Virus record (IMG/VR): IMGVR_UViG_3300021091_000001
Location: 32,001-96,000 of that record
Length of the DNA stretch: 64,000 nt
Origin: a virus
Taxonomy: Duplodnaviria; Caudoviricetes
Reading direction: 5' to 3' (one strand)
Of this stretch, positions 719 through 60,225 are shown one piece after another; the first letter of the stretch is position 1; each line of letters opens with the position of its first letter. Below the pieces are notes generated by a model that ran no database searches, was not told the DNA's origin, and saw only the letters and a list, made by a program, of their open reading frames with translations. The position numbers and the translations under genes are program-made.

Positions 719-2533
719 ATGAGTGATAACAGTCCCATCCACAATCCAATTATCAACAACCCATTCGAGCCACGAAAGGAGCCCGAAACCATGAAGTACG
801 TAATCCGCAACGAACGAGGTGAGATGTATCAGAAGGAGGTATGGTACGCAGGTATGAATCCTGCAGAAATGCGGAGCATCGACATTATTAAAGCTCTGTG
901 GGATGCTGACAAGACTCTGCTTGAGATGTACCTGAATGAGCAGAGACACAACGACAAGCATCCAGAAAAGAAGGCCTTTGAGGGTGTAATGATGGTCGTT
1001 GATGATTCGTATCTGGACATGAGGTCAATCCTCAAGGAGTTTGCGGGAAAGGTCCGCATGAGTGGAATGGCGACACATGGAGAATGGGATTTCTCTCCCC
1101 TGCACGTTGTCTCGTACCGATTCCTGATGGAGGATTCATACATCAGGAAGATTGATGGGGAAAAGGTCAAGATCAACAGAATCAGCATGTATGAAATGCT
1201 GGTGACAGAAAAGAAAAGTGATAAAAAGCCTGGATTCGTTATTGAGTTCAGGAGTCATGTCAAGAATTCACTTGGTCAGGTGTATACAAAGAACTGGCCT
1301 GTGGTCTTCCACATCAACAAAACTCCAAATGGTGTTCGGTTTCTGTGGAGGAATAACAAAACTAAAGAAACACATTGGGGTGTGGGCTACTACTCCATAG
1401 CAAGAAAGAATGGTGTACCACAATTTCCGCTGGTGACAGAAAAGATGGCTAATGCATTTCAAAGTGTCAGGAACAAGATGGTCAAGCACCATGACATTCA
1501 TGAAATTCTCAAGTACATTCCGCTTCAAAGCATTGAGGGAGAGAGTCATCATCCAATGAGTGTTCTGCAAGATCAAAACGATACATGGTCATCGTATCCA
1601 TACCCGATTGATCAATTCAGCGTCTACTGGATTGGTGGTTCAACAAGTGTCAAGGACATCTTGAACAAGGCCTTTGATACTAAGCGGGATGAGCAAGGTA
1701 GACTTGTGGGTGGAATCACCAAGAAGGCATTTGGTGGTTTGAACAACATCGACAACTTCATTGATTTGCGTGCAGCAATTAACGTTGTGCGAGCATTGCG
1801 CGGGTTTGATCCACACATCTTTGAGAAGATGAATACAGAATACGTTGAGGTGTGGACTCACGAAGAAGACGGAATAAGATTTGTGGAGCCGCAAAACATT
1901 TCTCGGTTTGCATTCTCGACAACTAGGGATTTTGCTAATATCAGGTATCATTTTCAGCACTTTGGAAATGATGAGGATCTTGCTTTGAAATTCTTTATGG
2001 AGGGATCACCACGGGTGACATGGATGATAACTGACACTGTCCGCGCATTCAGAGGAATTCGGTCACAGAGGCTGCGTCGTGCGATCAAGGCTGAGATCAA
2101 GCGACAGAAAATGGATTACACTCAGATTCACGATTATGTTATGCAAGAATGGAATAAAATTAAGCACGAAAACCAGGTGTTTAGTTCCACGACACTGTGG
2201 AAGAAGCATGGGAAGCTTCAGCACACCTTGATCTCGCCAGATATTCAACTGGTGCTGCCGTCAACAACTCACGAGATGATTGAGTGGGGCAATACACAGT
2301 CCAACTGCATCGGCTCTTACGCTGATCGTGTTCTCAACAATGACACAATTATCGTTGGATTCAAGGACAGCAACGGTGAATGGATTGGACATGCGCAGTT
2401 CACGGAGAAAGGAGAACTCAACCAACTTCTCGGTAAGCACAATCAAAAGATTGAGGACTCATACAAGAAGGTGATTGTTGACTTCTTGGTCAATGAGTTT
2501 GAAGTATCAGCAGACCAATACTGGGGGAGGTGA
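719..2533 (+). CDS. PcfJ-like domain protein
   Basis: C-terminal EMIEWGNTQSNCIGSYADRV..IIVGF resembles the PcfJ L..EG..M.HCVGSY motif; AGGAGG RBS. Confidence 0.7.
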   Translation: MSDNSPIHNPIINNPFEPRKEPETMKYVIRNERGEMYQKEVWYAGMNPAEMRSIDIIKALWDADKTLLEMYLNEQRHNDKHPEKKAFEGVMMVVDDSYLDMRSILKEFAGKVRMSGMATHGEWDFSPLHVVSYRFLMEDSYIRKIDGEKVKINRISMYEMLVTEKKSDKKPGFVIEFRSHVKNSLGQVYTKNWPVVFHINKTPNGVRFLWRNNKTKETHWGVGYYSIARKNGVPQFPLVTEKMANAFQSVRNKMVKHHDIHEILKYIPLQSIEGESHHPMSVLQDQNDTWSSYPYPIDQFSVYWIGGSTSVKDILNKAFDTKRDEQGRLVGGITKKAFGGLNNIDNFIDLRAAINVVRALRGFDPHIFEKMNTEYVEVWTHEEDGIRFVEPQNISRFAFSTTRDFANIRYHFQHFGNDEDLALKFFMEGSPRVTWMITDTVRAFRGIRSQRLRRAIKAEIKRQKMDYTQIHDYVMQEWNKIKHENQVFSSTTLWKKHGKLQHTLISPDIQLVLPSTTHEMIEWGNTQSNCIGSYADRVLNNDTIIVGFKDSNGEWIGHAQFTEKGELNQLLGKHNQKIEDSYKKVIVDFLVNEFEVSADQYWGR

Positions 2534-3572: not shown

Positions 3573-3604
3573 GGAGATTACCCCCGAAAGGGGGTTTTCT
3601 CTTT
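3573..3604 (+). terminator. Intrinsic terminator (GAAA loop)
   Basis: CCCCC-GAAA-GGGGG followed by TTTTCTCTTT. Confidence 0.8.
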
Positions 3605-3695
3605 ATGGGTAGATTCTAGACTCCAAATCTAGCATCTAGATACCCAACCGCGCATGGACGGCCTCTATGCACTAAGCCACAAGGAGGTGGTAACG

Positions 3696-6062
3696 ATGTT
3701 TCACGGCATCGTAAACAGAGGTGATGGCTGGTTCCGGGTCATTACCTCTCTCAAGCTTCACGGGAAGGATAATGTTCTCGAAGAGTTTGAGGGTGGGCCT
3801 TACTGGCCCGCTTTCTTGGAACACTTCTTCCCTGATCGATACAGGGTTGAAGTCCGCAAGATCCACGGCAAGGGTCTCAACGGAGTGAAATCCGATGACC
3901 CCAAGTCTGCGTTAACACCAATAGCGCAAGAGGTGATCCGTTGGTCTACTGCTACAGACCAGTACAGCCTCCGCATTAAGAATGCCGAAGTTAAGAACAA
4001 TACAACCTGGCTCCATGAGCTTGAGAATATTGGTCTAATCATCGGTAATTCAAAGAAGATGAGCAAGAGGCTTTTGGAGCTTGTTCGTCTATCTTGTGCG
4101 GCAATGTACATTCCCAAGAATGAGCTGAAGGTTGAAGAGATTGATTATATCAGCCTTGGATGCATTGATTCCGATGTCGACGGAATTAGTGCTATTAGCA
4201 TGTCGTTGGCAGTTAGGTGCATCCTGGCCAATCCGATGGCAACGGAAGAATGGGTTCAAGAGCAGATCGAAAACATCTATTCTGGTGAAACTACAGTCGT
4301 TCAGCTTCGTGTGCTGACGCCAAGTGGTTTAATCAAGGGTAATGCTCTTGTTCTACCGGATGGTATGATGAAAGGATTTGATATCAGGACATTTGCTCCT
4401 AACATCAAGTCAGAAATTCGTACTGTTGGGTGGAATTGGATCACAATTGAGCCGTCGCACTCAGTGCTTCCCGTTAAGTCAGACGACTTGACTCACGCAA
4501 TTTATCAGGAAATTGATGGTTTGTATGCCGGAGACAACCTGATAAAGACACTTGAGAACGTCTTGGACAATGCGTTTGAAGACCTCAAGAGTGGCAAGCG
4601 TAGCAGGTGGATGACTAAGCTGGTGGACAGTGCTGAGATTATTGTGCGTTCCGACTCTGGTTTGCAAGAAGATAAGTACAGGACACCAAAGTCAACATTA
4701 AAGATGGTGCAAACAGCCATTGCAAAGTTGGATAAGCTTGGAATCCCCTTCGAGGCAAGTCAGACTCTGAGGTACTTGACTGTAAATGGACTGTCTATGC
4801 AGTTCCTGGGTCGTGAAACTGGTGTGGTTGGTAACGTCTGGAGACAGAAGAACAAGCACTGGATGCCAGTTCAATGGGCCTATAGTGCTCACATTGTGAC
4901 ACAAGAAGTCCTCAAGATCTTTGGTTTCAAGACAACCAAGGGTCATTGGGGTTATTATCATAATAAGACTCGTTGTTTTGTGGTTCCAGGCGATTATTTT
5001 GCCAGGAATTTGGTCAATCATGGTGGACCTGACGAGGACGATATCGTGAAAGTCCATGTCAGGATTGTTGATTTTGCTGACAGGCAGCAATTGATGGCAT
5101 TCATCCTCCGTAATCCGAACGATTTCGGTGAATGGAGCATGATTCCCATCAGAAAGTATGGCCCAGTGTTTCACAATTACACGGAAGTACCTCCTACAAT
5201 CAACTACCAGGAGCTGATAAGTAAAGTTCCTCAGATGACTACGCTGAATGCACAAAATGCAATCACCTACGGTCAACTTCCTGGAACTGCAAACCTTGTC
5301 ATTGGCAAGAAATACAGTCTTGCTGATGAATCTCGTTGCCGGTTGGCTTCAATAAACTTCCCTGGAGGTGTTGGTAGTTCAGTTCTGCCCAAAATGATGT
5401 GGTATGCACTCAATAAGACCTACATTCCCTACTGTATTGCAACGAATGAGGAAATCATCGACGCTCTTCAGCAGGGTCTTGCAACTCCAAGTGACGTTCT
5501 GCTAATCAAGAGCTGGTCAGAAAAGACATTTAGAGACCTGCTTGTCAATCATGGTAAGAATGGAACCAAGATGGACATGTTCTGGATGCAGACTCGTCTT
5601 CCTGACAAGTATGCCAAAGACATTGATGCTACAAGTATTCAGGACTCTCCGTGGTGTCAGCTTCACATTCAGCGAGAAATATTGGTAAGAACTAAGGTAT
5701 CAGCAATGCTTGACTTTATTAATAGTAGCATTGTTATGCCAGAAGTTCTGGTCAATCTTAACTTTACCGAGGAAGAGATTGATACTGCTACTAAGGATGT
5801 CGAGAAGATGTCTACCAAGTGCAGTACGATGTCTACAACCCAATGGGTTGAGTATGTCTGTGGCTTGTTTGATCGCGTGGATCAGAATCCTGAGAAGGGT
5901 ATCGAATACATGAACCGCAAGATCTTGGCTATGGCGTACTGCTCAATTATCAAGAAGCAGAAGTTTGTCAAGGCAAACCATGATCGTTGGCTCTACGCAT
6001 TTAGTTCGAAGAGCCATCGTCAGCCTACAGATTGGCTCATCCGAGCTCTGCAGGCTCTTTAA
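3696..6062 (+). CDS. Putative single-subunit two-barrel (YonO/QDE-1-like) RNA polymerase, copy 1
   Basis: Motifs SKRL, DGISAIS, QLR..IKGN, HGGPDEDD, LRNP; AAGGAGG RBS favours ATG 3696; paralog of 19234..21807. Confidence 0.65.
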   Translation: MFHGIVNRGDGWFRVITSLKLHGKDNVLEEFEGGPYWPAFLEHFFPDRYRVEVRKIHGKGLNGVKSDDPKSALTPIAQEVIRWSTATDQYSLRIKNAEVKNNTTWLHELENIGLIIGNSKKMSKRLLELVRLSCAAMYIPKNELKVEEIDYISLGCIDSDVDGISAISMSLAVRCILANPMATEEWVQEQIENIYSGETTVVQLRVLTPSGLIKGNALVLPDGMMKGFDIRTFAPNIKSEIRTVGWNWITIEPSHSVLPVKSDDLTHAIYQEIDGLYAGDNLIKTLENVLDNAFEDLKSGKRSRWMTKLVDSAEIIVRSDSGLQEDKYRTPKSTLKMVQTAIAKLDKLGIPFEASQTLRYLTVNGLSMQFLGRETGVVGNVWRQKNKHWMPVQWAYSAHIVTQEVLKIFGFKTTKGHWGYYHNKTRCFVVPGDYFARNLVNHGGPDEDDIVKVHVRIVDFADRQQLMAFILRNPNDFGEWSMIPIRKYGPVFHNYTEVPPTINYQELISKVPQMTTLNAQNAITYGQLPGTANLVIGKKYSLADESRCRLASINFPGGVGSSVLPKMMWYALNKTYIPYCIATNEEIIDALQQGLATPSDVLLIKSWSEKTFRDLLVNHGKNGTKMDMFWMQTRLPDKYAKDIDATSIQDSPWCQLHIQREILVRTKVSAMLDFINSSIVMPEVLVNLNFTEEEIDTATKDVEKMSTKCSTMSTTQWVEYVCGLFDRVDQNPEKGIEYMNRKILAMAYCSIIKKQKFVKANHDRWLYAFSSKSHRQPTDWLIRALQAL

Positions 6063-13826: not shown

Positions 13827-14025
13827 ATACCATGCCCGTTAGCAGCGGGCAGGGGGAAGTTCCCCTATCTAATAGATAGTGATATCTAGAAGTCGGAGAG
13901 GCAACCTTGCCACTGTGATGGGCATCTCGTATGTGTCCATGCAATCTTCGGTTTCGCAAACCTGCGCGATGATAATGCTAGTCGGATTATTGACTAGCAG
14001 AAACAGACGAAAGGAGCGATACCAA

Positions 14026-14859
14026 ATGCGCATACTTAAAACATTAATTATATCATTAATTATAATAACTTCATTAACATTTGCCAGTTCTGCCAATGCT
14101 TCAGCTTGGGAGTATGTCACCTTCAGAATGGGTGCACCCGCTAGCTACTGGAAAGATGTAGCTCAATGTCAGGCTGGCAACAAAAATCAGGTCAACTGGA
14201 AACAGCTTGGTATACAATCTGGAGGACTTCAGATTCATACCAATTCTTCTTTCGGTCAACCCGATATGGGCATATGGGAGCAATATGGTGGTGAGCAATT
14301 TGCGCCATCTCCAGATAAAGCATCTGTGGATCAGCAGATTATTATTGCCAACCGTATTGCTATCACAGGCTTCAAAACCAAACAAATTAACAGCTTTACC
14401 ATTAGGCCATTAAGAGATGTTTATATTAAACATCCTCTTGGTTTTAATCATTGGTCATGTATTGCAACTAGTGAGCTTGATTCATATTCCAAAATTGAAT
14501 ACACTGTAAGAATATCTACTGATCCAACTTTCTCATGTCCTAAATATGAGAACTTGTTCAGAAAATATGGTTTACCACCCAAGGTATTTTCCTATATTGC
14601 TTACAGAGAATCACGTTGCAATACTAATGCTGTTAACGCTAGGTGGAAAGATGGTAAACTCATCTGGACATTAAATAATAACAAAACTTATGATTCTGGG
14701 TTGTTACAAATCAATTCATCTTGGATTGGAACACTCAAGAGAGAGTTTGGTTATTCTTCATCTGATTTATTTAAAGCAGATGTTAATGCCCGATTTGCCA
14801 GCTGGATACTTAACAATACATCAGGTAGATTGCGTAACTGGTCTCTGTACGCAAAATAG
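14026..14859 (+). CDS. Secreted Rpf-like + SLT/lysozyme-like double-domain transglycosylase
   Basis: Signal peptide; WKDVAQCQAG..GGLQI..WEQYGG..APSPDKASVDQQIIIA (Rpf pattern); second domain IAYRESRC..DSGLLQINS; AAGGAG RBS. Confidence 0.8.
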   Translation: MRILKTLIISLIIITSLTFASSANASAWEYVTFRMGAPASYWKDVAQCQAGNKNQVNWKQLGIQSGGLQIHTNSSFGQPDMGIWEQYGGEQFAPSPDKASVDQQIIIANRIAITGFKTKQINSFTIRPLRDVYIKHPLGFNHWSCIATSELDSYSKIEYTVRISTDPTFSCPKYENLFRKYGLPPKVFSYIAYRESRCNTNAVNARWKDGKLIWTLNNNKTYDSGLLQINSSWIGTLKREFGYSSSDLFKADVNARFASWILNNTSGRLRNWSLYAK

Positions 14860-19233: not shown

Positions 19234-21807
19234 ATGAACTTTAGCACTTACCGTCCGGACGTTCGGCTCAAAGCATTTAAGGATGCTCCGCTTCGTTCCA
19301 AGGATAATTATCAGATTGGCTTTTATGACATTGGCGTTTTGCGTCAACTTATGAACAGCTCTGATGCAAATGAATTTCGTGTAGCAGCATTGCCCATTCC
19401 TCAAAACGTCTTTGACCGTGCGGAACTAGAAAAAATTGTTCGTCACCCTTCTGTGCAGTACGCGCTTGTTGACAAAACGAAGATTGTTCTTTGTTCTATT
19501 AAGGGTTGTAACGGATGGCTTGGTGCAATCAATGAAGCTGGTTTTAAAGTAAAAGGTGGTGGAAAGACAGCGAAGCGATTGAAGTCATTTCACCGCGCTT
19601 CGCTAATTAACGCTCATTACGACCACCTTCGTATTCAATGGGTTGAACCGACAGCTTACACCCGTTATGACTTTGAAAATGGCGATTGGTCCCCTTGGGT
19701 CAAAGAAGCCACTTCTCGTTTGCTTGATGGCGGTTTTGTTATTTCATCCCGTTTGATTCACAAAGCTCTTGCCGACCAGCCACTGTATTATACAAACAAT
19801 GAGACTTTGGATCCTAATGACGTTTATTATGATCCAGAGATTCGCCGTAAGCTTCGTGCTTTTCTTGTTGCTTCAAAGGTTTTCAACGGACGCATTTTCA
19901 CTCCAGAAGGTGTAATCAAGGGCAATTTTATTGTTTCTGATAATCTTCCTGAGTATGTGGACGTTATTACCTCTCGTGAGAATCTCAAGAAAGAAATCGA
20001 ATATCATAATGGCTATCGACTCATTGCAGAGCCTCAAGGTCCCAAGACATCTGTTATTACAGATGACCAAACTGTTATCAATCTTCCTAAGTTGTTTCGC
20101 AAGAGCGACTTGGAATTCTGGCTAAAAGAACAATATGAAATCATGTTTGAAGATGCTAAAAATGATCGTCTTCTACAGGATTGGAAATTTGTTTTTGTTC
20201 GCCAGTTTTCAAAAGCTGATAACTATGGATCAAAGAAGAAGGAACAAACTCCTGCAGATTTGGAAGCCCAGACTCGCGTTAACTACGTAGGTTATCGTTG
20301 GAAGAGCATGGGTCTTTCAATTACTGATTCGCCGTGGTTGTTTAAGACCTTGGCAATTTCTCATGCACGTCCGCTTGAGAATCGTATTCCGATTCCTTGC
20401 AGTGTGTATGAGCAGATTATTCCTGAATCTTTGGCTCGTATGGCAGGGTTTGATATCATTGTCGAAGAGGGTACCATTCGCAGAATCAATTCTGTTGGTA
20501 TTCATGTGGTCAACGATTTCGATTGGCTTGAGATGTACGAGTCGCACGGCGGTCACGATCAGGACGACTTCTTTAAGTTGTTTTATCGTACCATGAAATC
20601 CGGATCCAAAGACGGAAAGAAAGTTGTTATAGTCGCTCGTAGCCCAAATGGTTATGGCGAGTATTCAATATTTGATTACGTTGAAGGTGAATGGTATCCT
20701 AAATGGAAGAAGTCTGATGGAGAAGTTGTAACTTTTCCTGAAGTCAATGGCCGTAACTGGCCAGTACGTCTTTCTGATGCAATTCGCGCACGTAAGGTTC
20801 GTTACGTTGGTCTTCCCAGCGATAACAATCCTTCTCCCAAGCCTTCTGAAGGAGAACAGTACTCTGTTGAAGACTTTATGTCTGATGTTGACACTGCTAT
20901 GAACGGTGGAAACGTTGGTCGTTTTGTTAACTCTTCTATGCTCCATTCTAATTCATTAGCCAAGCATCGCCCAGTTCAGGTTTGTTCTCTCGAGTCAGCC
21001 ATCGATGGTTGCACTCAAACATCAAACCCACTGGATCGCACAGCTATTGATGCAGAAGCAGAAATAATTCTTCAAGAAGTCATTGATTCTGGTGCTAAGG
21101 TTGATCACGACCTTTGGTATGGTCGCTTTGCAAACTTTGCCAAAAAGCATCCTGAAGTCGAGACGTATGAAGGAACTCTTACACATATGAATAATTTGTG
21201 CAAGACTTACTTTAACAAGTATGTTGATCGGGTCACTAAGTATTCTCAAACAGAGATTGCAATTGCTGATCCAATCAACAAACTTGCTAACCGTTTGCGT
21301 TTTCATGCACTTCCTACATTTCGCAGATTCAACATGAGTATTTATAATACCAACTCTGGCGAATTTGCTCAAAGCTCTGGAACTATTTCTCGAGAAGAAT
21401 GGGATTACATTTACGGAAACGTCGTCAAAGACATTGAATCATTTGTACGAATTGAAGATCGTCACGATTTCGTGATTGCTCTTTATGCAGTTTGTATGAC
21501 TGAGAAGAATGGTTCTGGTCGTGTTTCTGATCAGATTATGATGAATCCGGTTATCTATCCATATCTTGAGCGTGCTCTTATTCACTATGGTATTGCTAGC
21601 CGAGTTCTTATGACCTTCAACAATGGCAAATACGCAGCCGAACAAACTAAGTATGATAAGTGGACTCATATTGATCCCGACGGTAGTCAGCACTCGTTTA
21701 CTGATGTGTTTGAATATCAAGATCATCATGCGCAGTTTTCGCCTATCGTATTTACAAACGTTGATTCTGCTGTAAAGCGTGAGCGTAGAACTGAATCACA
21801 ATTTTAG
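19234..21807 (+). CDS. Putative single-subunit two-barrel RNA polymerase, copy 2
   Basis: AKRL, DGGFVIS, GRIFTPEGVIKGN, HGGHDQDD, ARSP; same motif order as the 3696 protein. Confidence 0.65.
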   Translation: MNFSTYRPDVRLKAFKDAPLRSKDNYQIGFYDIGVLRQLMNSSDANEFRVAALPIPQNVFDRAELEKIVRHPSVQYALVDKTKIVLCSIKGCNGWLGAINEAGFKVKGGGKTAKRLKSFHRASLINAHYDHLRIQWVEPTAYTRYDFENGDWSPWVKEATSRLLDGGFVISSRLIHKALADQPLYYTNNETLDPNDVYYDPEIRRKLRAFLVASKVFNGRIFTPEGVIKGNFIVSDNLPEYVDVITSRENLKKEIEYHNGYRLIAEPQGPKTSVITDDQTVINLPKLFRKSDLEFWLKEQYEIMFEDAKNDRLLQDWKFVFVRQFSKADNYGSKKKEQTPADLEAQTRVNYVGYRWKSMGLSITDSPWLFKTLAISHARPLENRIPIPCSVYEQIIPESLARMAGFDIIVEEGTIRRINSVGIHVVNDFDWLEMYESHGGHDQDDFFKLFYRTMKSGSKDGKKVVIVARSPNGYGEYSIFDYVEGEWYPKWKKSDGEVVTFPEVNGRNWPVRLSDAIRARKVRYVGLPSDNNPSPKPSEGEQYSVEDFMSDVDTAMNGGNVGRFVNSSMLHSNSLAKHRPVQVCSLESAIDGCTQTSNPLDRTAIDAEAEIILQEVIDSGAKVDHDLWYGRFANFAKKHPEVETYEGTLTHMNNLCKTYFNKYVDRVTKYSQTEIAIADPINKLANRLRFHALPTFRRFNMSIYNTNSGEFAQSSGTISREEWDYIYGNVVKDIESFVRIEDRHDFVIALYAVCMTEKNGSGRVSDQIMMNPVIYPYLERALIHYGIASRVLMTFNNGKYAAEQTKYDKWTHIDPDGSQHSFTDVFEYQDHHAQFSPIVFTNVDSAVKRERRTESQF

Positions 21808-22958: not shown

Positions 22959-24641
22959 ATGAATGTTAAACTACGCCCATATCAACAAGAGGCATTAGAT
23001 AGTATTGTTTCTAATTCAGACAATGGTATCAACAAACAGCTTGTTGTTTTACCCACCGGTGCAGGCAAAACAGTAATATTTAGTCATTTACCACTTATTA
23101 AACAAGACTTGCTTCCTATGCTTGTTTTGGCTCACAGATCTGAGTTGCTAGATCAGGCTCGTGAAAAGATTCTTATTTCTAATCCTAATCTCTCAGTAGA
23201 AATAGAACAAGCTGAAAGAGAAGCTGGACACGTTGATATTGTTGTTGCTTCTGTTGCTACACTTGGTCGCAACAATACTCCTCGTATTACAAATTATCCT
23301 AGTGAATATTTCAAGTCAATTGTTATTGATGAAGCACATCATGCTGCAGCTCCTACGTACAGACGAATAGTCGATTATTTTAATCCTCCATTTATATTGG
23401 GAGTCACTGCTACTCCTCAGCGTTCAGATTCTACGAGATTAACTGATGTATTTGAAGAGATCGTTTATTACAAAACAATACAGGATCTAATCCAAGACGG
23501 GTGGTTATCTCCACTTGTTGGATATAGAGTAAAAACAAATACCGATATTTCAGAAGTGGAGATTCAAAATGGAGAGTATGTCCAATCTCAGTTGGAAGAC
23601 AAAATTGATAATCCTGAGCGTAACGCTTATATCGTGTCTTCCTATCTTTCTTTGGCTATGGCTAAGAAAGCCCTTGTTTTCGCTGCCGGGGTCAAGCACG
23701 CCGAAAACTTGGCCTTATCCTTTAGGTCCGCGTCGTTAGAGACCGCCGTAATCTTAGGTACAACTCCTCGAGAAGAACGAGAGAAAATCCTAAAGAATTT
23801 TTCTTTGGGTTTGATTAAAGTTATTATTAATGTTGGTGTTCTAACGGAAGGTTTTGATGAGCCTTCTGTCGAAGCAATTATACTTGCAAGACCTACTAGA
23901 TCTTCTCTTCTATATACTCAGATAGTTGGACGAGGTACTCGTTTACATCCAGGAAAAGAACATTGTCTTGTTATAGATATTGCAGACACAACAAAAGGCA
24001 AGAAGCCTATTGGACTTCCAACTCTTTTGGGTTTGCCTCCAGAGTTCGATCTGCAGGGTCAATCTTTAACAGACGTTGCTAAGAAGTTTGAAGAACTTGA
24101 AAATTTTTGTCCTGGTGAAGCAGTAAGAGTTTTAAATCCACAAGACATTGATTTGGCATACACGAGAATTAATTTGTTTATGCCACCACCACCTAATCCA
24201 GTTGTTCAAGAATATTCTAAACTGATTTGGGCAGAGGTAGCAGAAAACGAGTTTTATCTTCGTCTTCATTCATTTGAGTCCCTTAAGATATACTGTGATG
24301 CTCTTGGTCGATGGACTACAGAATTAAAAATGCGTTCTGGTGATGTTTATCATACAAAGATTCTTGGAACTACTGTTAGCATAAGAGAATCTTTTGCTCG
24401 TACAGATAAGTGGATTCAGAATAATAGATCAACAGTATTGAACCTTATAGATTCTAATGCTGCTTGGCGTTCTGATTCTCCAACTGATAAACAGCAAAAG
24501 TTTTTACGACGCATTGGTGTTCCTTTTACTTCAGACATGACTAAGGGGATGGCCAGTCAAATTATTTCTCGCTATTATGAGAACAATCCTAAGCCTAAAT
24601 GGCTTCAAGATAAAATAGATTATTCTAAAAGAAGATATTAA
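22959..24641 (+). CDS. SF2 DEAD/DEAH-box helicase (ResIII/Irc3-like)
   Basis: LRPYQ, PTGAGKT, DEAHH, TATP, EGFD, QIVGRGTR. Confidence 0.95.
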   Translation: MNVKLRPYQQEALDSIVSNSDNGINKQLVVLPTGAGKTVIFSHLPLIKQDLLPMLVLAHRSELLDQAREKILISNPNLSVEIEQAEREAGHVDIVVASVATLGRNNTPRITNYPSEYFKSIVIDEAHHAAAPTYRRIVDYFNPPFILGVTATPQRSDSTRLTDVFEEIVYYKTIQDLIQDGWLSPLVGYRVKTNTDISEVEIQNGEYVQSQLEDKIDNPERNAYIVSSYLSLAMAKKALVFAAGVKHAENLALSFRSASLETAVILGTTPREEREKILKNFSLGLIKVIINVGVLTEGFDEPSVEAIILARPTRSSLLYTQIVGRGTRLHPGKEHCLVIDIADTTKGKKPIGLPTLLGLPPEFDLQGQSLTDVAKKFEELENFCPGEAVRVLNPQDIDLAYTRINLFMPPPPNPVVQEYSKLIWAEVAENEFYLRLHSFESLKIYCDALGRWTTELKMRSGDVYHTKILGTTVSIRESFARTDKWIQNNRSTVLNLIDSNAAWRSDSPTDKQQKFLRRIGVPFTSDMTKGMASQIISRYYENNPKPKWLQDKIDYSKRRY

Positions 24642-24643
24642 CA

Positions 24644-25111
24644 ATGTCTTTTACCGCTCATGAACTTATACCATTTCCTTATGACGCATATTCTTACACT
24701 TTATATGAATGTGTCTCATTAAAAGATAAATCATTTCTTGCTGCAGCTGCCAAGCTTGCACAAACTTCTGATAATAGATTTAAAATGGCTTGTCTAGCTG
24801 TAAGGGGTGGATCTGTTTTAGCTGCAGATATTAATGTTACTAAAAAACATCCTACCACTCCACCCAATAGATTCAGCACTCATGCTGAAATCGGAGCAAT
24901 GACTGCTTGTTCAGATCCTTCTGGATCTACTCTTTATATTGCTCGTCTTAAACTGGATGGTACTACAGCTATAGCAAGACCTTGTTCTTGGTGTATGCAG
25001 CAAATACAAAAGAATGATATATATCGAGTTGTTTACACAACAGATACAGATATTCCAGAATCATTTTATATATCTACCGTAGAATGGAACTATAATGTTC
25101 TTGAAGCTTAA
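24644..25111 (+). CDS. Cytidine/dCMP deaminase-family protein
   Basis: HAE and PCSWC zinc motifs. Confidence 0.9.
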   Translation: MSFTAHELIPFPYDAYSYTLYECVSLKDKSFLAAAAKLAQTSDNRFKMACLAVRGGSVLAADINVTKKHPTTPPNRFSTHAEIGAMTACSDPSGSTLYIARLKLDGTTAIARPCSWCMQQIQKNDIYRVVYTTDTDIPESFYISTVEWNYNVLEA

Positions 25112-26639
25112 ATATATTTTTATTGCTTTTATTTTACTTTTTATTACAATTTCTTTTGCTGCAGCAGATGCAAAAGAGCAACTTTACGATGTTGCTCCAG
25201 CTAAAGGTCCTGTTAAGTTTACTTTTACCCTTGCATCTTCAGATCTTACTACTTCTATGAATCTTCCTTATAATTTAAATTATAAAGGTCAAGATTCATA
25301 TATAGCAATTATTGATACCGGTATTCAAACTAATCATCCGTTTTTCCAGAACAGAGTTGTTTTAGAAGCTTGTTTTGCAACATCTTGCCCCAATGGACAA
25401 ACTCAGATGATTGGACCTGGGGCAGCAAAGCCAGTTCATTATCATGGCACTCATGTTGCTGGCATTGCTGCAGGCTACAGTAATACCGTTCATGGGGTAG
25501 CTCCATTGGCCAATATTATTGCTATCAATATATTTGATTCCACTGGAGCAGCATATGATACTAATATTGTTAAAGCTCTTAACTGGTTATCTTCTATATC
25601 ATCACAATACAATATTGTTTCCGTTAATATGTCAATCGGTGGATTTCAAACTTATTTAACCACTTGTGATGACTATATTCCTGCTATGACACAAGCTATT
25701 CAAGATCTTAGATCTAAGAATATTGCTACTGTCATATCTTCTGGCAACTCGTATGCTCATGGCATGAGTGCACCTGCATGTATTTCTTCTGCCGTTTCTG
25801 TTGCAGCTACATACAAAACACTTCCTGCAAAGATCACCAACTTTTCTAACATTAATCAATACACCACTATTGCAGCTCCTGGATCTTCTATTTACTCATC
25901 TAAGACATCTTCTACATATGGTTCAGCGTCTGGAACATCTATGGCTGCTCCATTTATCGCCGGAGCAATTGCTGTTTACAGATCTAAATTTGGAATTCAA
26001 TCCGTAGATAAAATTGTTTCTGATTTTAGATCTACTTCCAAAAGAGCAACAGACGCTTACACTGGAATATCAATTCCTTATTTAAATTTTGATCATTTGT
26101 TTGGTACTGATCTTTCTACTACTACCACCACTTCTACTACACTTCCTATCACAACTACCACTGTAAATTATTCTTCAACAACTTTACCCATTTCTACTAC
26201 TACATCTTCGTCTTCTACCACAACTACACTTCCTATTACTACTACCCTTCCTTCTACTACAACTACAACAACTTCTACTACTACTACAACAACCTTACCT
26301 CCTACAACAACTACTCTTCCTCCTACCACACCTCTTTTGCGCGTTGTTCCTCCACTTGTCAGTGAAATAAATTCTAATTTTGGCAATATTACTAAAATTT
26401 ACTTTAGAGATCCTAGAGTACATTTTAAGAATATAGCTTATTACAATTTAACCTGTAATGATACTTTGACCTATCAAGTTCCTATGCTTACCTCTCCCCG
26501 ATGGAGAGCTTACAATATTCCTTCTAAATCTATTAGACATTGTTATATGACATCTATGTCTAAAGATGGTGTTTCTACCGCTAAATCAAGTACAGTTTCT
26601 TTGTACTCTGTCAATAAAATTATTACAAGTTCAAGATAA
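25095..26639 (+). CDS. Secreted subtilisin-like S8 protease with Thr-rich linker
   Basis: Signal peptide; IIDTG, HGTHVAG, SGN, GTSMAAP; poly-Thr tract. Confidence 0.92.
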   Translation: MFLKLKYIFIAFILLFITISFAAADAKEQLYDVAPAKGPVKFTFTLASSDLTTSMNLPYNLNYKGQDSYIAIIDTGIQTNHPFFQNRVVLEACFATSCPNGQTQMIGPGAAKPVHYHGTHVAGIAAGYSNTVHGVAPLANIIAINIFDSTGAAYDTNIVKALNWLSSISSQYNIVSVNMSIGGFQTYLTTCDDYIPAMTQAIQDLRSKNIATVISSGNSYAHGMSAPACISSAVSVAATYKTLPAKITNFSNINQYTTIAAPGSSIYSSKTSSTYGSASGTSMAAPFIAGAIAVYRSKFGIQSVDKIVSDFRSTSKRATDAYTGISIPYLNFDHLFGTDLSTTTTTSTTLPITTTTVNYSSTTLPISTTTSSSSTTTTLPITTTLPSTTTTTTSTTTTTTLPPTTTTLPPTTPLLRVVPPLVSEINSNFGNITKIYFRDPRVHFKNIAYYNLTCNDTLTYQVPMLTSPRWRAYNIPSKSIRHCYMTSMSKDGVSTAKSSTVSLYSVNKIITSSR

Positions 26640-31953: not shown

Positions 31954-32424
31954 ATGGGCATGGATGTTTATGGCCGTAAGCCTAAAAACGACCTTGGTAA
32001 GTATTTTCGAGCCAATTTATGGTATTGGCGTCCTTTGTGGATGTATGTAGAACATGCTCATCCACTTATAGCATCAAGAGTAGAAAGTCCTCAGCTTAAT
32101 GATGGATCTGGTTTAAACTCTAAAGATTCATACACTTTAGCTCGTCTTTTAAAAAAAGATATTGAATCTGGTGCACTTGAAAAGTACATTGAAGATTTTC
32201 ATTCTTATCTTAATGCTCTTCCTTTAGAAGACTGCACATATTGTGATGAAAATGGGAATCTTTCTGCGACTATTTCCTCTGGAGCAACTTCTCTTGTTCA
32301 GTGCAACACCTGTAAAGGTACCAAGAAAAGAGAGTCTATTCTCACTTGGTACCGTATGAATCTTAATCTCATGAAAGAATTTCAACAGTTTCTTGAAAAC
32401 TGTGGCGGATTTGAGATTTGGTAA
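31954..32424 (+). CDS. Conserved phage-type protein with CxxC...CxxC insert
   Basis: MGMDVYG..YFRANLWYWRPLW; CTYC/CNTC; AGGAG RBS. Confidence 0.8.
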   Translation: MGMDVYGRKPKNDLGKYFRANLWYWRPLWMYVEHAHPLIASRVESPQLNDGSGLNSKDSYTLARLLKKDIESGALEKYIEDFHSYLNALPLEDCTYCDENGNLSATISSGATSLVQCNTCKGTKKRESILTWYRMNLNLMKEFQQFLENCGGFEIW

Positions 32425-45824: not shown

Positions 45825-46262
45825 ATGATTGATCCACGTAACAACGTAATATTAAGCGCTGGTATCGTAACTGATCCAGAACTTGTAGCTAACGGAAACA
45901 TTGCAAAGTTTCGCATTGCAGTAGACTTTGCTGGTTCTGAAAAGGGTGCAGGAGTATCTTCTGGATATTTCGATATTGTTTACTATCTTAAGGATGGTTC
46001 TGATTTTGCATCAAAGAATGCTTCCTTTGTCGCTAAGCAGATTGCTGAAGGCAAAATGAAGAAAGGTTCTCAGATTCAGCTTGTTGGCCGTCTTGTTCAA
46101 GAAAGATGGCAGCAAGAGGGTCAGGGTCGTTCAAAGGTTGTTGTTGTAGCAGAAGCTGTTACCTACGCGACTTCTGCATATTCAAAGTCTGATTCTAATT
46201 CCGGTTCATCTGAGGCTCCTAAGCAGGCTTCTTCTAGCTATTCAGTTCCGGATGAGTTCTGA
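45825..46262 (+). CDS. ssb: Single-stranded DNA-binding protein
   Basis: NNVILSAGIVTDPE..AKFRIAV..KGSQIQLVGRL..ERW..RSKVVVVAE; acidic tail VPDEF. Confidence 0.9.
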   Translation: MIDPRNNVILSAGIVTDPELVANGNIAKFRIAVDFAGSEKGAGVSSGYFDIVYYLKDGSDFASKNASFVAKQIAEGKMKKGSQIQLVGRLVQERWQQEGQGRSKVVVVAEAVTYATSAYSKSDSNSGSSEAPKQASSSYSVPDEF

Positions 46263-47001
46263 GGAATTTGACCCAACAATTCTTCAGGACATATTAGATG
46301 AGGCTATGTCTGTAGACAGATCCTATGGTCAACTTGGATTTATGGAGACAGACATAGTTTCTTCTATCTTTTCTGCCCTAAGCAATAAGCTTACCAATGC
46401 AGATATTTTGGAAGTAATACAGGATGCTAGAGTTTCTATTAACTCTTATAAGGTTCCAAATAAAATAACTGATCTTCATACAGTTGTTCACAACTGTAGA
46501 AAGTGTTCTTTTTCTGGACCTACTCCTGTGCTTCCAAAATGGAATCTTATTAATCCTGATGTTTTGTTTATTTTTGAGACATCTTATTTAGATCAACAAT
46601 CTACTGATTTTTTCATTAAAACTTTAAAAGAGATTGGTTTTTCTTCTTCTAATATTTGTATGACATATCTTTTGAGATGTCCTACAAGAGATGTAAATAA
46701 ACAATATATAGACAATTGTTCTCAATATTTACATAGCGAGATTCAAATTATGAATCCTAAGGTTATTGCTCCTTTAGGCAATACAGTTTTATCTTCTTTA
46801 TTTGGAACTACGTTGCAAATAAAAGATTATAAACAAAAACTTACCTGGTTTGGTAGTTGGGCAATTTATCCATTATATTCTATACCTTATATTTTGAAAT
46901 CTGGAGAACAAGCTCAGTCTTCTTTTTATGAAGATTTAGCTCAGCTTTATCAATTCTGTTACAAAAGAGGTAATTCAATTGAACTTAAAACTTCTCAATA
47001 A
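46252..47001 (+). CDS. Uracil-DNA glycosylase family 4-like
   Basis: CRKC, LRCP..CSQYLHSEIQIMNPKVIAPLG; catalytic GE.P and HP motifs appear degenerate. Confidence 0.75.
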   Translation: MSSEEFDPTILQDILDEAMSVDRSYGQLGFMETDIVSSIFSALSNKLTNADILEVIQDARVSINSYKVPNKITDLHTVVHNCRKCSFSGPTPVLPKWNLINPDVLFIFETSYLDQQSTDFFIKTLKEIGFSSSNICMTYLLRCPTRDVNKQYIDNCSQYLHSEIQIMNPKVIAPLGNTVLSSLFGTTLQIKDYKQKLTWFGSWAIYPLYSIPYILKSGEQAQSSFYEDLAQLYQFCYKRGNSIELKTSQ

Positions 47002-57930: not shown

Positions 57931-60225
57931 TCATTTATCGTTTTGTATCATTGCATTTAGGTAGTGTATGGCAAAAGCAATACTGGTAGCTATAACAGTG
58001 ATCCTTCTGGTATCTCCAGAAAGAGTGGCAAACACTATTACTGTACCTGATATAGTAAAGGCTAATGCTGCAGTTTCCTTTGCAAATTTCTTGATAAAGC
58101 CCAAAGGACTAAATCTTTTTTCCATGGTTCCCTCCGTGTATTTAAATATACTGTTACGAGTAAAATTACTTTCTTCTTCGTCCCCTTCTGGACCCTCTAT
58201 TTCGGCTTCCTCTTCTTCCTCTTCTGGCTCATCTTCTTTTCTGGCAGCATTATTTGAGCTTGATTGACCAGGCCCGTCACCACCAGACGGAGAAGGGTTG
58301 CGGGAAGCTGTTCCACCAGATCCGCTAGTTGCAGCTCCGGCAGTTATTGTTGAAAGAACGGTTGTGGCAGCTATTAAAGTCCTTCTAGTTCCAACATCAA
58401 TATTAGAACCAACTGGCACATAGTCATCAAATCCTTCAGCATAGATATTAATCTCTTCCTCAAAAACGTTCTTAACTTCTTGCGAGGCATTTTGAATAGC
58501 TTCAGTAATTTCAGACTTTTGCTCATCTGTTATATTACCTGCATCAACTGCATCAAATATTTTAGCTGCTTGTTCAGCTGTAACTGACTCTAAAACTTCT
58601 GAAGAAGTAGCAAGTTCAGTAGCTACTTCTGAGTCTAGCTTTTCTGCTTCAATAAGAGTATCAACCAACTCAACGACTTGCTCTTCTGTTGCGTCTCCGC
58701 TAGTTAAAAGATCTACCAGTTGATTGGTTACTTCATCAGTGATTTCAATATCACCAGATGTAATTCCATCCAAGACAGCATCAACCTCTTCTGGTGTAAC
58801 TTCTCCATCTAAAACTTCATCTAAATTATCAACGGTAACCTGAACAGTTCCTTCATTTGGCGTTTCTGGATCAGGTTCTGGTACTGTAGTTTGATCTTCT
58901 GGTTGAACCTCAGTTGTTGTCGTTGTATCTAGCTCTTGTTCTGGCTCTGTGGTGGTTGTTATTTCAGGTTCAGTGGTAGTCGTGGTTCCAGTGGGTGGTG
59001 ATTCTGGAACTGTAGTGGTTGTTTGAGGAACAGTTGTGGTGGTTGTTTCAGGAACAGTTGTGGTGGTTGTTTCAGGAACAGTTGTGGTGGTTGTTTCGGG
59101 AACGGTTGTAGTGGTTGTTTCAGGAACGGTTGTAGTGGTTGTTTCAGGAACGGTTGTAGTGGTTGTTTCAGGAACGGTTGTGGTTGTAGTGGTAGTAGGT
59201 GGAATAGTAGTTGTAGTAGTAGTTGTAGTGGTTGTCGTTGTAGTAGTAGTTGTAGTGGTTGTCGTTGTAGTAGTAGTGGTAGTAGTGGGCGGAGTAGGGT
59301 CAATCACCACAGCATCAACAGTTGCCTGGGGCCCGTACATACAGGACCCAGCACCCTCTCCGACGCATGGGGCTGTTCCTGCCTGAATCTTAAATCTGAC
59401 TGGTCCGTATCCAGTTGTTCCAGGCCACATCCATGGGCCGAGGCTGTATGAAGTATTTACGGCGTATGTCCACACTCCCCAACCACCAGCTTCTACCCCA
59501 TCAACGAGGTCATAAAACAAAATGTTGTACATATATGGGGCAGTGTTGCTTGGTGTTGGGGCGTTCCAACTCAAAACAACATTTCCATCGTTGTCTGCCA
59601 CTGCTGTGAGATTTTGAACAGAGTTAAAGTATGGCGCTATCGTTGTAGTTGTAGTACTGGTAGTAGTCGTGGTTGGCACAACGACAGTCTTTGTAAAAGC
59701 AGAGGCGGGAACTACCTGCCATCCCGAACCTATATCCCAGTAGAGAGTCGTATTGGCTCCGCCACCATTTTCGTAATACCAATATGTGATTGGCTTGGAA
59801 ACTCCAGCGGTAAAAGAAACGTACTGTGACGGGTTGCCCCAGCCGCCCTTGTCAACCCAGTTGTTGTCTATCAAAACATTGTCTATATAGAGTTTGCTTC
59901 CGTCATCCGCAGCGGGCAAGAACCTAAACGAGCCAGTCACGGGCAGGGTTATGTGACCTTCATACTTAACAATAAAGTCTTCATACATGTTGAACAGCGG
60001 TGCACTGTCAAAGCTCTGATTAATCTGAGTGAGAGTGGTGGTTCCAACGACCGGACGACCGGTGACCGTGGGGAGTGGAGGCGAATTGTTGTAGCCAAAG
60101 TTGTTGTAAACGGTTACATTAAGTCCTGGTTCGACTTGAGCAGAAGCAGAAAAATTTGGAAAAATAATACCAATAAAAAAGAGTACGCCAAGAATCCAGG
60201 AACCTTTTTGTAGTTTGATTCGCAT
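57931..60225 (-). CDS. Secreted/membrane-anchored PA14-domain protein with Thr-rich stalk
   Basis: Signal peptide; FIVKYEGHI..ADDGSKLYID..YYENGGGA (PA14); FN3-like strand; PETTTTTV repeats; two C-terminal TM helices. Confidence 0.82.
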   Translation of the reverse strand: MRIKLQKGSWILGVLFFIGIIFPNFSASAQVEPGLNVTVYNNFGYNNSPPLPTVTGRPVVGTTTLTQINQSFDSAPLFNMYEDFIVKYEGHITLPVTGSFRFLPAADDGSKLYIDNVLIDNNWVDKGGWGNPSQYVSFTAGVSKPITYWYYENGGGANTTLYWDIGSGWQVVPASAFTKTVVVPTTTTTSTTTTTIAPYFNSVQNLTAVADNDGNVVLSWNAPTPSNTAPYMYNILFYDLVDGVEAGGWGVWTYAVNTSYSLGPWMWPGTTGYGPVRFKIQAGTAPCVGEGAGSCMYGPQATVDAVVIDPTPPTTTTTTTTTTTTTTTTTTTTTTTTTTTIPPTTTTTTTVPETTTTTVPETTTTTVPETTTTTVPETTTTTVPETTTTTVPETTTTTVPQTTTTVPESPPTGTTTTTEPEITTTTEPEQELDTTTTTEVQPEDQTTVPEPDPETPNEGTVQVTVDNLDEVLDGEVTPEEVDAVLDGITSGDIEITDEVTNQLVDLLTSGDATEEQVVELVDTLIEAEKLDSEVATELATSSEVLESVTAEQAAKIFDAVDAGNITDEQKSEITEAIQNASQEVKNVFEEEINIYAEGFDDYVPVGSNIDVGTRRTLIAATTVLSTITAGAATSGSGGTASRNPSPSGGDGPGQSSSNNAARKEDEPEEEEEEAEIEGPEGDEEESNFTRNSIFKYTEGTMEKRFSPLGFIKKFAKETAALAFTISGTVIVFATLSGDTRRITVIATSIAFAIHYLNAMIQNDK
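59004..59290 (-). repeat. Coding tandem repeat (24-bp PETTTTTV units) and poly-Thr tract
   Basis: About seven near-identical 24-bp units inside the PA14 gene. Confidence 0.9.

Follow-up and report, generated by a model that had tools for sequence, protein, structure and literature searches.

Here, we analyze two genes of a lake phage of the Caudoviricetes (Duplodnaviria) that probably encode RNA polymerases with an unusual catalytic barrel. The window, that is, the whole stretch of DNA under study, has a length of 64,000 nucleotides and covers positions 32,001 to 96,000 of the IMG/VR record IMGVR_UViG_3300021091_000001. Both genes, called paralog 1 and paralog 2, lie on the plus strand of the window (Table 1). 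The homologs of paralog 1 are 788 amino acids long, cover 98% of the query and begin at an internal Met, and the true start of its open reading frame (ORF) is therefore probably at position 3696. The two proteins are distant from each other, with an identity of 20% (E-value 5e-10 in BLASTP). Residue numbers such as D442 and R469 are those of paralog 2, unless stated otherwise.

The original prediction, made from the letters of the window alone, described a non-canonical catalytic center in both proteins: an HGG-x-D-x-D-D motif in place of the usual DxDGD, followed about 25 residues later by the R-x-P motif, which in canonical enzymes comes first. Translation places both motifs, to the nucleotide, where they had been described, and the R-x-P-N-x-x-G-E segment sits 22–23 residues past the Asp motif in each protein. 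The order ascribed to the canonical enzymes is also correct. All known two-barrel polymerases have eight residues in common, including an R-x-P that is located 35–45 residues ahead of the Asp triad (Rpb1 R446/P448, QDE-1 R962/P964) (PMC2919709).

An exhaustive search with the family profile yields 564 clusters at 50% identity with E-values up to 1e-3, and 238 with E-values up to 1e-30, and the order with the R-x-P after the Asp residues is kept in the family. Among the representatives of the 50%-identity clusters that cover the region, D442, D444, D445, R469 and P471 are each present in 147 out of 147. When both lineages are aligned (111 sequences), the invariant residues are G439, G440, D442, D444, D445, R469, P471, G475 and E476, and in a set of 109 diverse representatives, which have a mean column identity of 9%, the sole invariant columns are K114, G166, K229, D442, D444, D445, R469 and P471. 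This invariance is far beyond chance and excludes a sequencing error, against which the conservation in the two copies had already been taken to argue.

The D-x-D-D form is found in 145 of the 147 representatives and thus replaces DxDGD family-wide. The D-x-D-x-D metal-binding signature of the two-barrel polymerases is consequently absent from them, and the three Asp are kept with an altered spacing. Just two representatives, P0348 and P0384, retain D-Q-D-G-D, and both still carry a downstream R-x-P (in P0384 an R-N-P, 22 residues after D-Q-D-G-D). The existence of such natural members indicates that DxDD is the canonical DxDGD with a one-residue deletion, in which the Gly of the GD-box is lost, and also that the two peculiarities are separable. 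No conserved Arg or R-x-P is present 20–100 residues before the Asp motif in the family alignment, which confirms that the motif truly comes after the Asp residues. At position 384, where the R-I-P of paralog 2 and the W-M-P of paralog 1 lie, only 67 of 152 sequences have an R or K, and the first upstream strand ends (residues 395–397) in the pattern [IV]-x-[TPS].

Each paralog has hundreds of metagenomic relatives without a name, and the two members of the family in UniProt are both labelled 'uncharacterized protein'. Neither paralog has a match in Pfam at E-values up to 1, including PF05183, the family of the eukaryotic-type RNA-dependent RNA polymerases (RdRPs), and both are without a match in PHROGs. 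Nothing was found among the PDB sequences with a single protein or with the family profile, nor in 50,697 phage records by tblastn and blastn with the paralogs. A search of the ESM Atlas by features also returned nothing, the single-sequence model of the Atlas being poor (predicted template modeling score, pTM, 0.18). Finally, an hhalign comparison of the family with a 6-member alignment of YonO, a polymerase of the Bacillus prophage SPbeta, gave nothing significant (probability 0.5% and 2%). By sequence, this is a large and unannotated family of its own, distinct from the YonO and RdRP families, in agreement with the suggestion that it could be a new polymerase subfamily. Both paralog types appear to co-occur on other contigs of ~200 kb, as seen from matching longest contigs (P0161 and P0405, 196,284 bp; P0136 and P0038, 41,991 bp).

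The R-x-P and DxDxD motifs, in this order, are regarded as universal hallmarks of two-barrel polymerases, from bacterial RNA polymerase (RNAP) to PolD, and they serve as search filters. Since these filters demand an R-x-P before DxDxD, the enzymes of the present family are not recognized. The filter of the viral RNAP survey, [RK]xPx{20,100}DxDxD (supplement of PMC10770324), matches 18 of 411 family sequences and, of the matches listed for the representatives, not one falls on the catalytic site.

The AlphaFold2 model of paralog 2, based on the family alignment, has a predicted local distance difference test (pLDDT) value of 88.4 and a pTM of 0.86, and the model of the catalytic domain of paralog 1 has corresponding values of 91.5 and 0.82. 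The latter contains an extra hairpin ahead of the barrel at low confidence (pLDDT ~70; residues 385–396, window ~4806–4841, domain residues 11–22), which paralog 2 does not have. In the Foldseek search, the best match is QDE-1 (E-value 1.4e-10), followed by RDR2 and by the non-virion RNA polymerases (nvRNAPs) gp62 of Thermus phage P74 and gp64 of P32, and weak matches are obtained to crAss gp66 and P23-45 gp96. VIA-align gives Z scores of 13.2 to 9 across 400–595 aligned residues, with RDR2 at 13.2 over 575 residues. According to these models, both proteins are single-chain two-barrel polymerases with the fold that defines the superfamily, in which two double-psi barrels face a cleft with the active site.

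The second double-psi β-barrel (DPBB), called DPBB-B, was identified in paralog 2 because residues 124–267 align to small canonical barrels of this kind. Several of its residues are well conserved, with D165 in 140 of 141 sequences, K229 in 142 of 142, K252 in 139 of 142 and R220 in 125 of 139. In canonical enzymes, DPBB-B gives one Asp and two basic residues (Rpb2 D837, K979 and K987).

The catalytic barrel, DPBB-A, is where the proteins deviate. In canonical enzymes, the catalytic loop follows a helix and is placed between strands five and six of the barrel (PMC4996933); in QDE-1, for example, the corresponding barrel, DPBB2, comprises residues 916–1018, with the Asp at 1007–1011 (PMC1750930). 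Instead of this 5 + 1 arrangement, the models of both paralogs have three strands before and three after the Asp loop. A short helix separates the first strand (384–397) from the hairpin 414–418/423–426, and the strands modeled past the loop are 446–455, 463–469 and 477–482. The ~100 residues upstream of residue 384 are helical, and the strands that come before these helices are those of DPBB-B.

One possible explanation is that the barrel is ordinary and unpermuted, and that the strands past the Asp loop form a C-terminal extension that is specific to this lineage and only packs against the barrel. The downstream R-x-P would then be unrelated in space to its canonical counterpart, and the canonical Arg would have been lost or replaced. 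The R/K-x-P found upstream in part of the family is consistent with this, and so is the fact that sequential alignments to canonical DPBBs end at the first strand past the Asp loop. However, an ordinary barrel needs five strands before this loop, and only three are available after the long connector helices, as strands 244–267 belong to DPBB-B. Moreover, it is R469 and P471 that are strictly invariant, and not the upstream Arg.

Further evidence on the wiring comes from direct-coupling analysis of ~400 family sequences (effective number of sequences, Neff, ~196), for which the mean-field and pseudo-likelihood approaches yield the same top contacts. The strands are here labelled Y1 (384–397), Y2 (414–418), Y3 (423–426), X1 (446–455), X2 (463–469) and X3 (477–486). 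An antiparallel ladder connects 391–397 with 443–451. Next, 446–456 forms a hairpin with 460–467 (register sum 916), in which residue 445 is opposite 471 and 447 is opposite 469. Another hairpin joins 462–467 with 477–483, the X2–X3 ladder being antiparallel with a constant sum of 943–947. Additional ladders are formed by 477–486 with 414–418 and by 414–418 with 423–424, and residue 438 couples with 476 and 478. When all 60 cyclic orders are scored, Y1-X1-X2-X3-Y2-Y3 comes out on top whatever the threshold, and it does so in 24 of 25 bootstraps; successive strands in this ring prefer the orientations anti, anti, anti, parallel, anti and parallel. As a positive control, the same procedure was applied to DPBB-B, where, in 22 of 25 bootstraps, the published order is obtained with the labels in sequence, together with the two parallel pairs. 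These results speak against the ordinary barrel with a C-terminal extension, as the ladders, X3–Y2 and Y1–X2 among them, tie the downstream strands to the upstream Y1 and Y2, and the top-scoring order is a closed ring in which the downstream strands are included.

The published strand arrangement of the DPBB is b3 b1′ b2 b2′ b1 b3′, or 1-5-2-4-3-6 when written as a cyclic order, in which the parallel pairs are b1/b5 and b2/b4 (PMC11258233). We infer that the ring of DPBB-A coincides with it only if 384–397 is b1, 414–418 is b2, 423–426 is b5, 446–455 is b6, 463–469 is b3 and 477–486 is b4. The chain would then encode the elements in the order b1, b2, b5, helix, DxDD, b6, b3 (with the R-x-P) and b4, instead of b1 to b6, as if the b3–b4 hairpin had been excised from between b2 and b5 and rejoined behind b6. 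Both new joints, b2–b5 and b6–b3, would be tight turns between strands that are antiparallel neighbors also in the canonical barrel, and the fold would therefore be preserved. With these labels, b5 and b6 flank the helix and the Asp loop, just as they do in all relatives, and the Asp triad, located on the loop that joins the second helix to b6, would bind the catalytic Mg2+. As the R-x-P ends b3, the antiparallel neighbor of b6, its Arg would be positioned at the start of b6, beside the Asp loop, similarly to Rpb1 R446 and QDE-1 R962. The spatial arrangement of the active site would thus stay canonical. Of the non-canonical catalytic center originally proposed, the sequence motif is borne out, while the three-dimensional site is more probably an ordinary one.

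The structural alignments can be read in the same way. The first strand of the present barrel is matched by the aligners to b1 in beta′, Rpb1 and QDE-1. Whole small DPBBs (VAT-N 1–92, designed DPBB 0–89) align to model residues 30–98, but over only ~55 residues, which fits b3–b4 being skipped, and QDE-1 911–1031 spans model residues 29–155 with 71 residues aligned.

A circular permutation with the order b3-b4-b5-b6-b1-b2 would also be compatible with the 3 + 3 strand count. It ranks, however, only 28–35 out of 60 by the coevolution contact score, it would set the R-x-P on b1, and it leaves both the strong X1–X2 hairpin and the Y1–X1 ladders unexplained. It would also require b3, and not b1, to map onto the first strand. 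We consider this scenario very improbable. Of the rearranged or permuted barrel suggested earlier, it is thus the rearrangement that is upheld, by the strand count and by the contacts that put the downstream strands inside the barrel, and not the circular permutation.

Other arrangements were considered as well. The downstream R-x-P could correspond to the 'S-P-x-x-G-x-P' segment after b6 of beta′, but the contacts give no support for this. Placing strand 446–455 between 463–469 and 477–486 is contradicted by the antiparallel X2–X3 ladder. An option with a hairpin inserted within the catalytic loop, and 477–486 as b6, was also considered and dropped.

It is important to point out that several facts weigh against the rewired barrel. 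The parallel pairs are called narrowly (7.4 vs 6.1 and 6.1 vs 5.6), and domain-only structure searches reach a Z score of 3.3 at most, a low value that also suits the ordinary barrel. Furthermore, AlphaFold2 and the contact analysis share overlapping alignments, such that their independence is incomplete, and the topology is deduced from three sources, namely DSSP strings, the ranges of the alignments, and coevolution, for which Neff is modest, rather than being read from coordinates. With these points included, the models and contacts make the rewired barrel fairly likely and the ordinary barrel rather unlikely.

Table 1. Features of the two polymerase genes, with positions in the window. The labels b1 to b6 follow the proposed strand assignment.
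Feature	Residues	Position	Strand	Remarks
TTCTCTTTATGG, last copy of early cassette motif, candidate promoter		3597..3608	+	46–88 nt upstream of paralog 1
Paralog 1, predicted single-chain two-barrel polymerase	802 aa (ORF); 788 aa from likely ATG	3654..6062; likely start ATG 3696	+	Translation; homologs
Paralog 1 catalytic barrel DPBB-A	Strands 409–416, 433–436, 441–444; helix 446–451; Asp loop; strands 464–473, 478–486, 494–499	4863..5150	+	
Paralog 1 H-G-G-P-D-E-D-D (preceded by N)	456–463	5019..5042	+	Asp triad D460/D462/D463 on helix-to-b6 loop, predicted metal-binding
Paralog 1 R-N-P-N-D-F-G-E	R486, P488, G492, E493	5109..5132 (R-N-P 5109–5117)	+	Assigned to end of strand b3 and loop to b4
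Paralog 2, predicted single-chain two-barrel polymerase	857 aa	19234..21807	+	Translation, AlphaFold2, Foldseek, VIA
Paralog 2 second barrel DPBB-B	124–267	19603..20034	+	D165 G166, R220, K229 G230, K252 invariant or nearly so; canonical topology
Paralog 2 long first strand	384–397	20383..20424	+	Assigned b1; N-terminal half has non-conserved R-I-P-I-P
Paralog 2 tight hairpin	414–418 / 423–426	20473..20511	+	Assigned b2 and b5
Paralog 2 helix before Asp loop	428–437	20515..20544	+	Second helix of the barrel (PMC4996933)
Paralog 2 H-G-G-H-D-Q-D-D (preceded by S)	438–445	20545..20568	+	Asp triad D442/D444/D445
Paralog 2 strand	446–455	20569..20598	+	Assigned b6
Paralog 2 hairpin	463–469 / 477–486	20620..20691	+	Assigned b3 (ends R469-x-P471) and b4; encoded after b6, not before b5
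Paralog 2 R-S-P-N-G-Y-G-E	R469, P471, G475, E476	20638..20661 (R-S-P 20638–20646)	+	Translation, conservation

Among known polymerases, those that match the structure best along almost the entire chain are the PF05183 enzymes QDE-1 of Neurospora (2J7N, 7Y7x) and RDR2 of plants (7W84, 7EU1), with VIA Z scores of 10–13 over 560–595 residues. They share with the new proteins the single chain, the location of DPBB-B before DPBB-A, and a G-G ahead of the Asp motif. The RdRP motif also has an acidic residue ~7–8 residues after the R-x-P, as in the new family. The differences are that the latter is phage-encoded, has DxDD and not DxDGD, and does not match PF05183. It also has ~40 fewer residues before the Asp loop and ~45 more after it, and, while its R-x-P follows the Asp motif, R962 of QDE-1 comes 45 residues before D1007 (PMC2919709).

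The nvRNAPs gp64 of Thermus phage P23-45 and gp62 of P74-26, together with the virion RNAP gp96 (8F5M, 8F72, 8H2M; Z 9.7–7.1), are likewise single-chain two-barrel enzymes and are present as two diverged paralogs per genome, as here. Unlike the new family, they have DxDxD with [RK]-x-P upstream, and no sequence similarity to them was detected. YonO is a single-chain two-barrel DNA-dependent RNA polymerase of ~840 amino acids that has the same set of elements, namely D-G, R....K-G, R-x-P and the Asp triad. Its order, R492-x-P494 followed by D535-x-D537-G-D539, is the reverse of that in the new family. The sole similarity to the YonO profile, which is not significant, lies at residues 542–574 of paralog 2 (window ~20857–20955), around the nearly invariant G562; the consensus there, N-P-G-x-G-x-x-x-N-A-x-M, can be compared with G593/N597 of YonO and may represent a bridge-helix-like element. 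Finally, the canonical DPBBs (VAT-N, the Cdc48 N domain, designed DPBBs and DPBB-A of beta′/Rpb1) have the same cyclic arrangement and two parallel pairs as proposed here for the new family. They differ from it in that the new family has the strand order 1-2-5-6-3-4, lacks the first helix (b2–b3), and has the GD-box before b6 without its Gly.

As to the function, the invariance of the catalytic residues speaks for the enzymes being active, and their most likely role is transcription. Transcription is favored because a pair of diverged paralogs in one genome is reminiscent of the two RNA polymerases of phage P23-45 (PMC10770324), and also because the last copy of the repeated, promoter-like motif TTCTCTTTATGG is located just upstream of paralog 1. 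The two proteins are thus probably active single-chain polymerases, most likely phage DNA-dependent RNA polymerases, in which a canonical barrel geometry is combined with a rewired chain and a Gly-deleted DxDD.

Another option is that the fold and wiring are as described, but that one or both enzymes are helicase-coupled primases, or other RNA polymerases templated by single-stranded DNA or RNA, acting in replication or host conflict. A DnaB-like helicase (L007:1354-2817, minus strand, 487 amino acids, including a 190-residue N-terminus without assignment) is encoded in the complete 202,043-bp genome, and a Pfam search of this genome found no DnaG, Toprim, Prim-Pol or AEP primase (PF08275, PF13155, PF13662, PF09250 and PF01896) and no PIF1 (PF05970). 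The missing primase is weak evidence, however, because phages with their own DnaB can recruit the host DnaG. Five distant family members of 1,400–2,100 amino acids (P0247, P0259, P0263, P0270 and P0292) have an N-terminal PIF1-like helicase, NADAR and/or DUF4326 before the polymerase, which suggests coupling to DNA unwinding and perhaps reversal of ADP-ribosylation. These helicase fusions are, on the other hand, confined to distant branches. A role outside transcription would also be in line with the closest solved folds being RNA-silencing RdRPs and with the helicase gene located two genes past paralog 2, whereas the paralog pair and the promoter-like motif speak for transcription. We find such a role unlikely here, with the fusions and the lack of a recognizable primase as points in its favor.

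The family, with at least 564 clusters at 50% identity, may well be the first example from nature in which the universal catalytic barrel of RNA polymerases is rewired, with the strand order 1-2-5-6-3-4, the GD-box Gly deleted and the geometry kept, a proposition that we consider evenly balanced; its Pif1-fused members may couple unwinding to RNA synthesis as a new primase or transcriptase. If so, the oldest polymerase catalytic domain tolerates a strand transposition, and the family offers a natural experiment on what is important in the Asp loop, that is, on the Gly and on the side from which the strand with the Arg is attached. Another consequence would be that surveys of viral RNA polymerases have missed an abundant group. 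In the phage itself, the two paralogs probably drive its own gene expression or its priming.

A number of other genes in the window could be assigned. The helicase gene mentioned above, two genes past paralog 2, encodes a superfamily 2 (SF2) protein (ResIII + Helicase_C, SNF2-like; 22959–24641, plus strand), and after it come a dCMP/cytidine deaminase (24644–25111, plus strand) and a subtilase (Peptidase_S8; 25095–26639, plus strand). Upstream of paralog 1, among the early cassettes, there is a 604-residue protein with a C-terminal PcfJ-like domain (719–2533, plus strand). A double lytic transglycosylase (Transglycosylas + SLT) is encoded at 13879–14859 and a UDG-superfamily protein at 46252–47001, both on the plus strand, and a PA14-domain protein of 764 amino acids at 57931–60225 on the minus strand.

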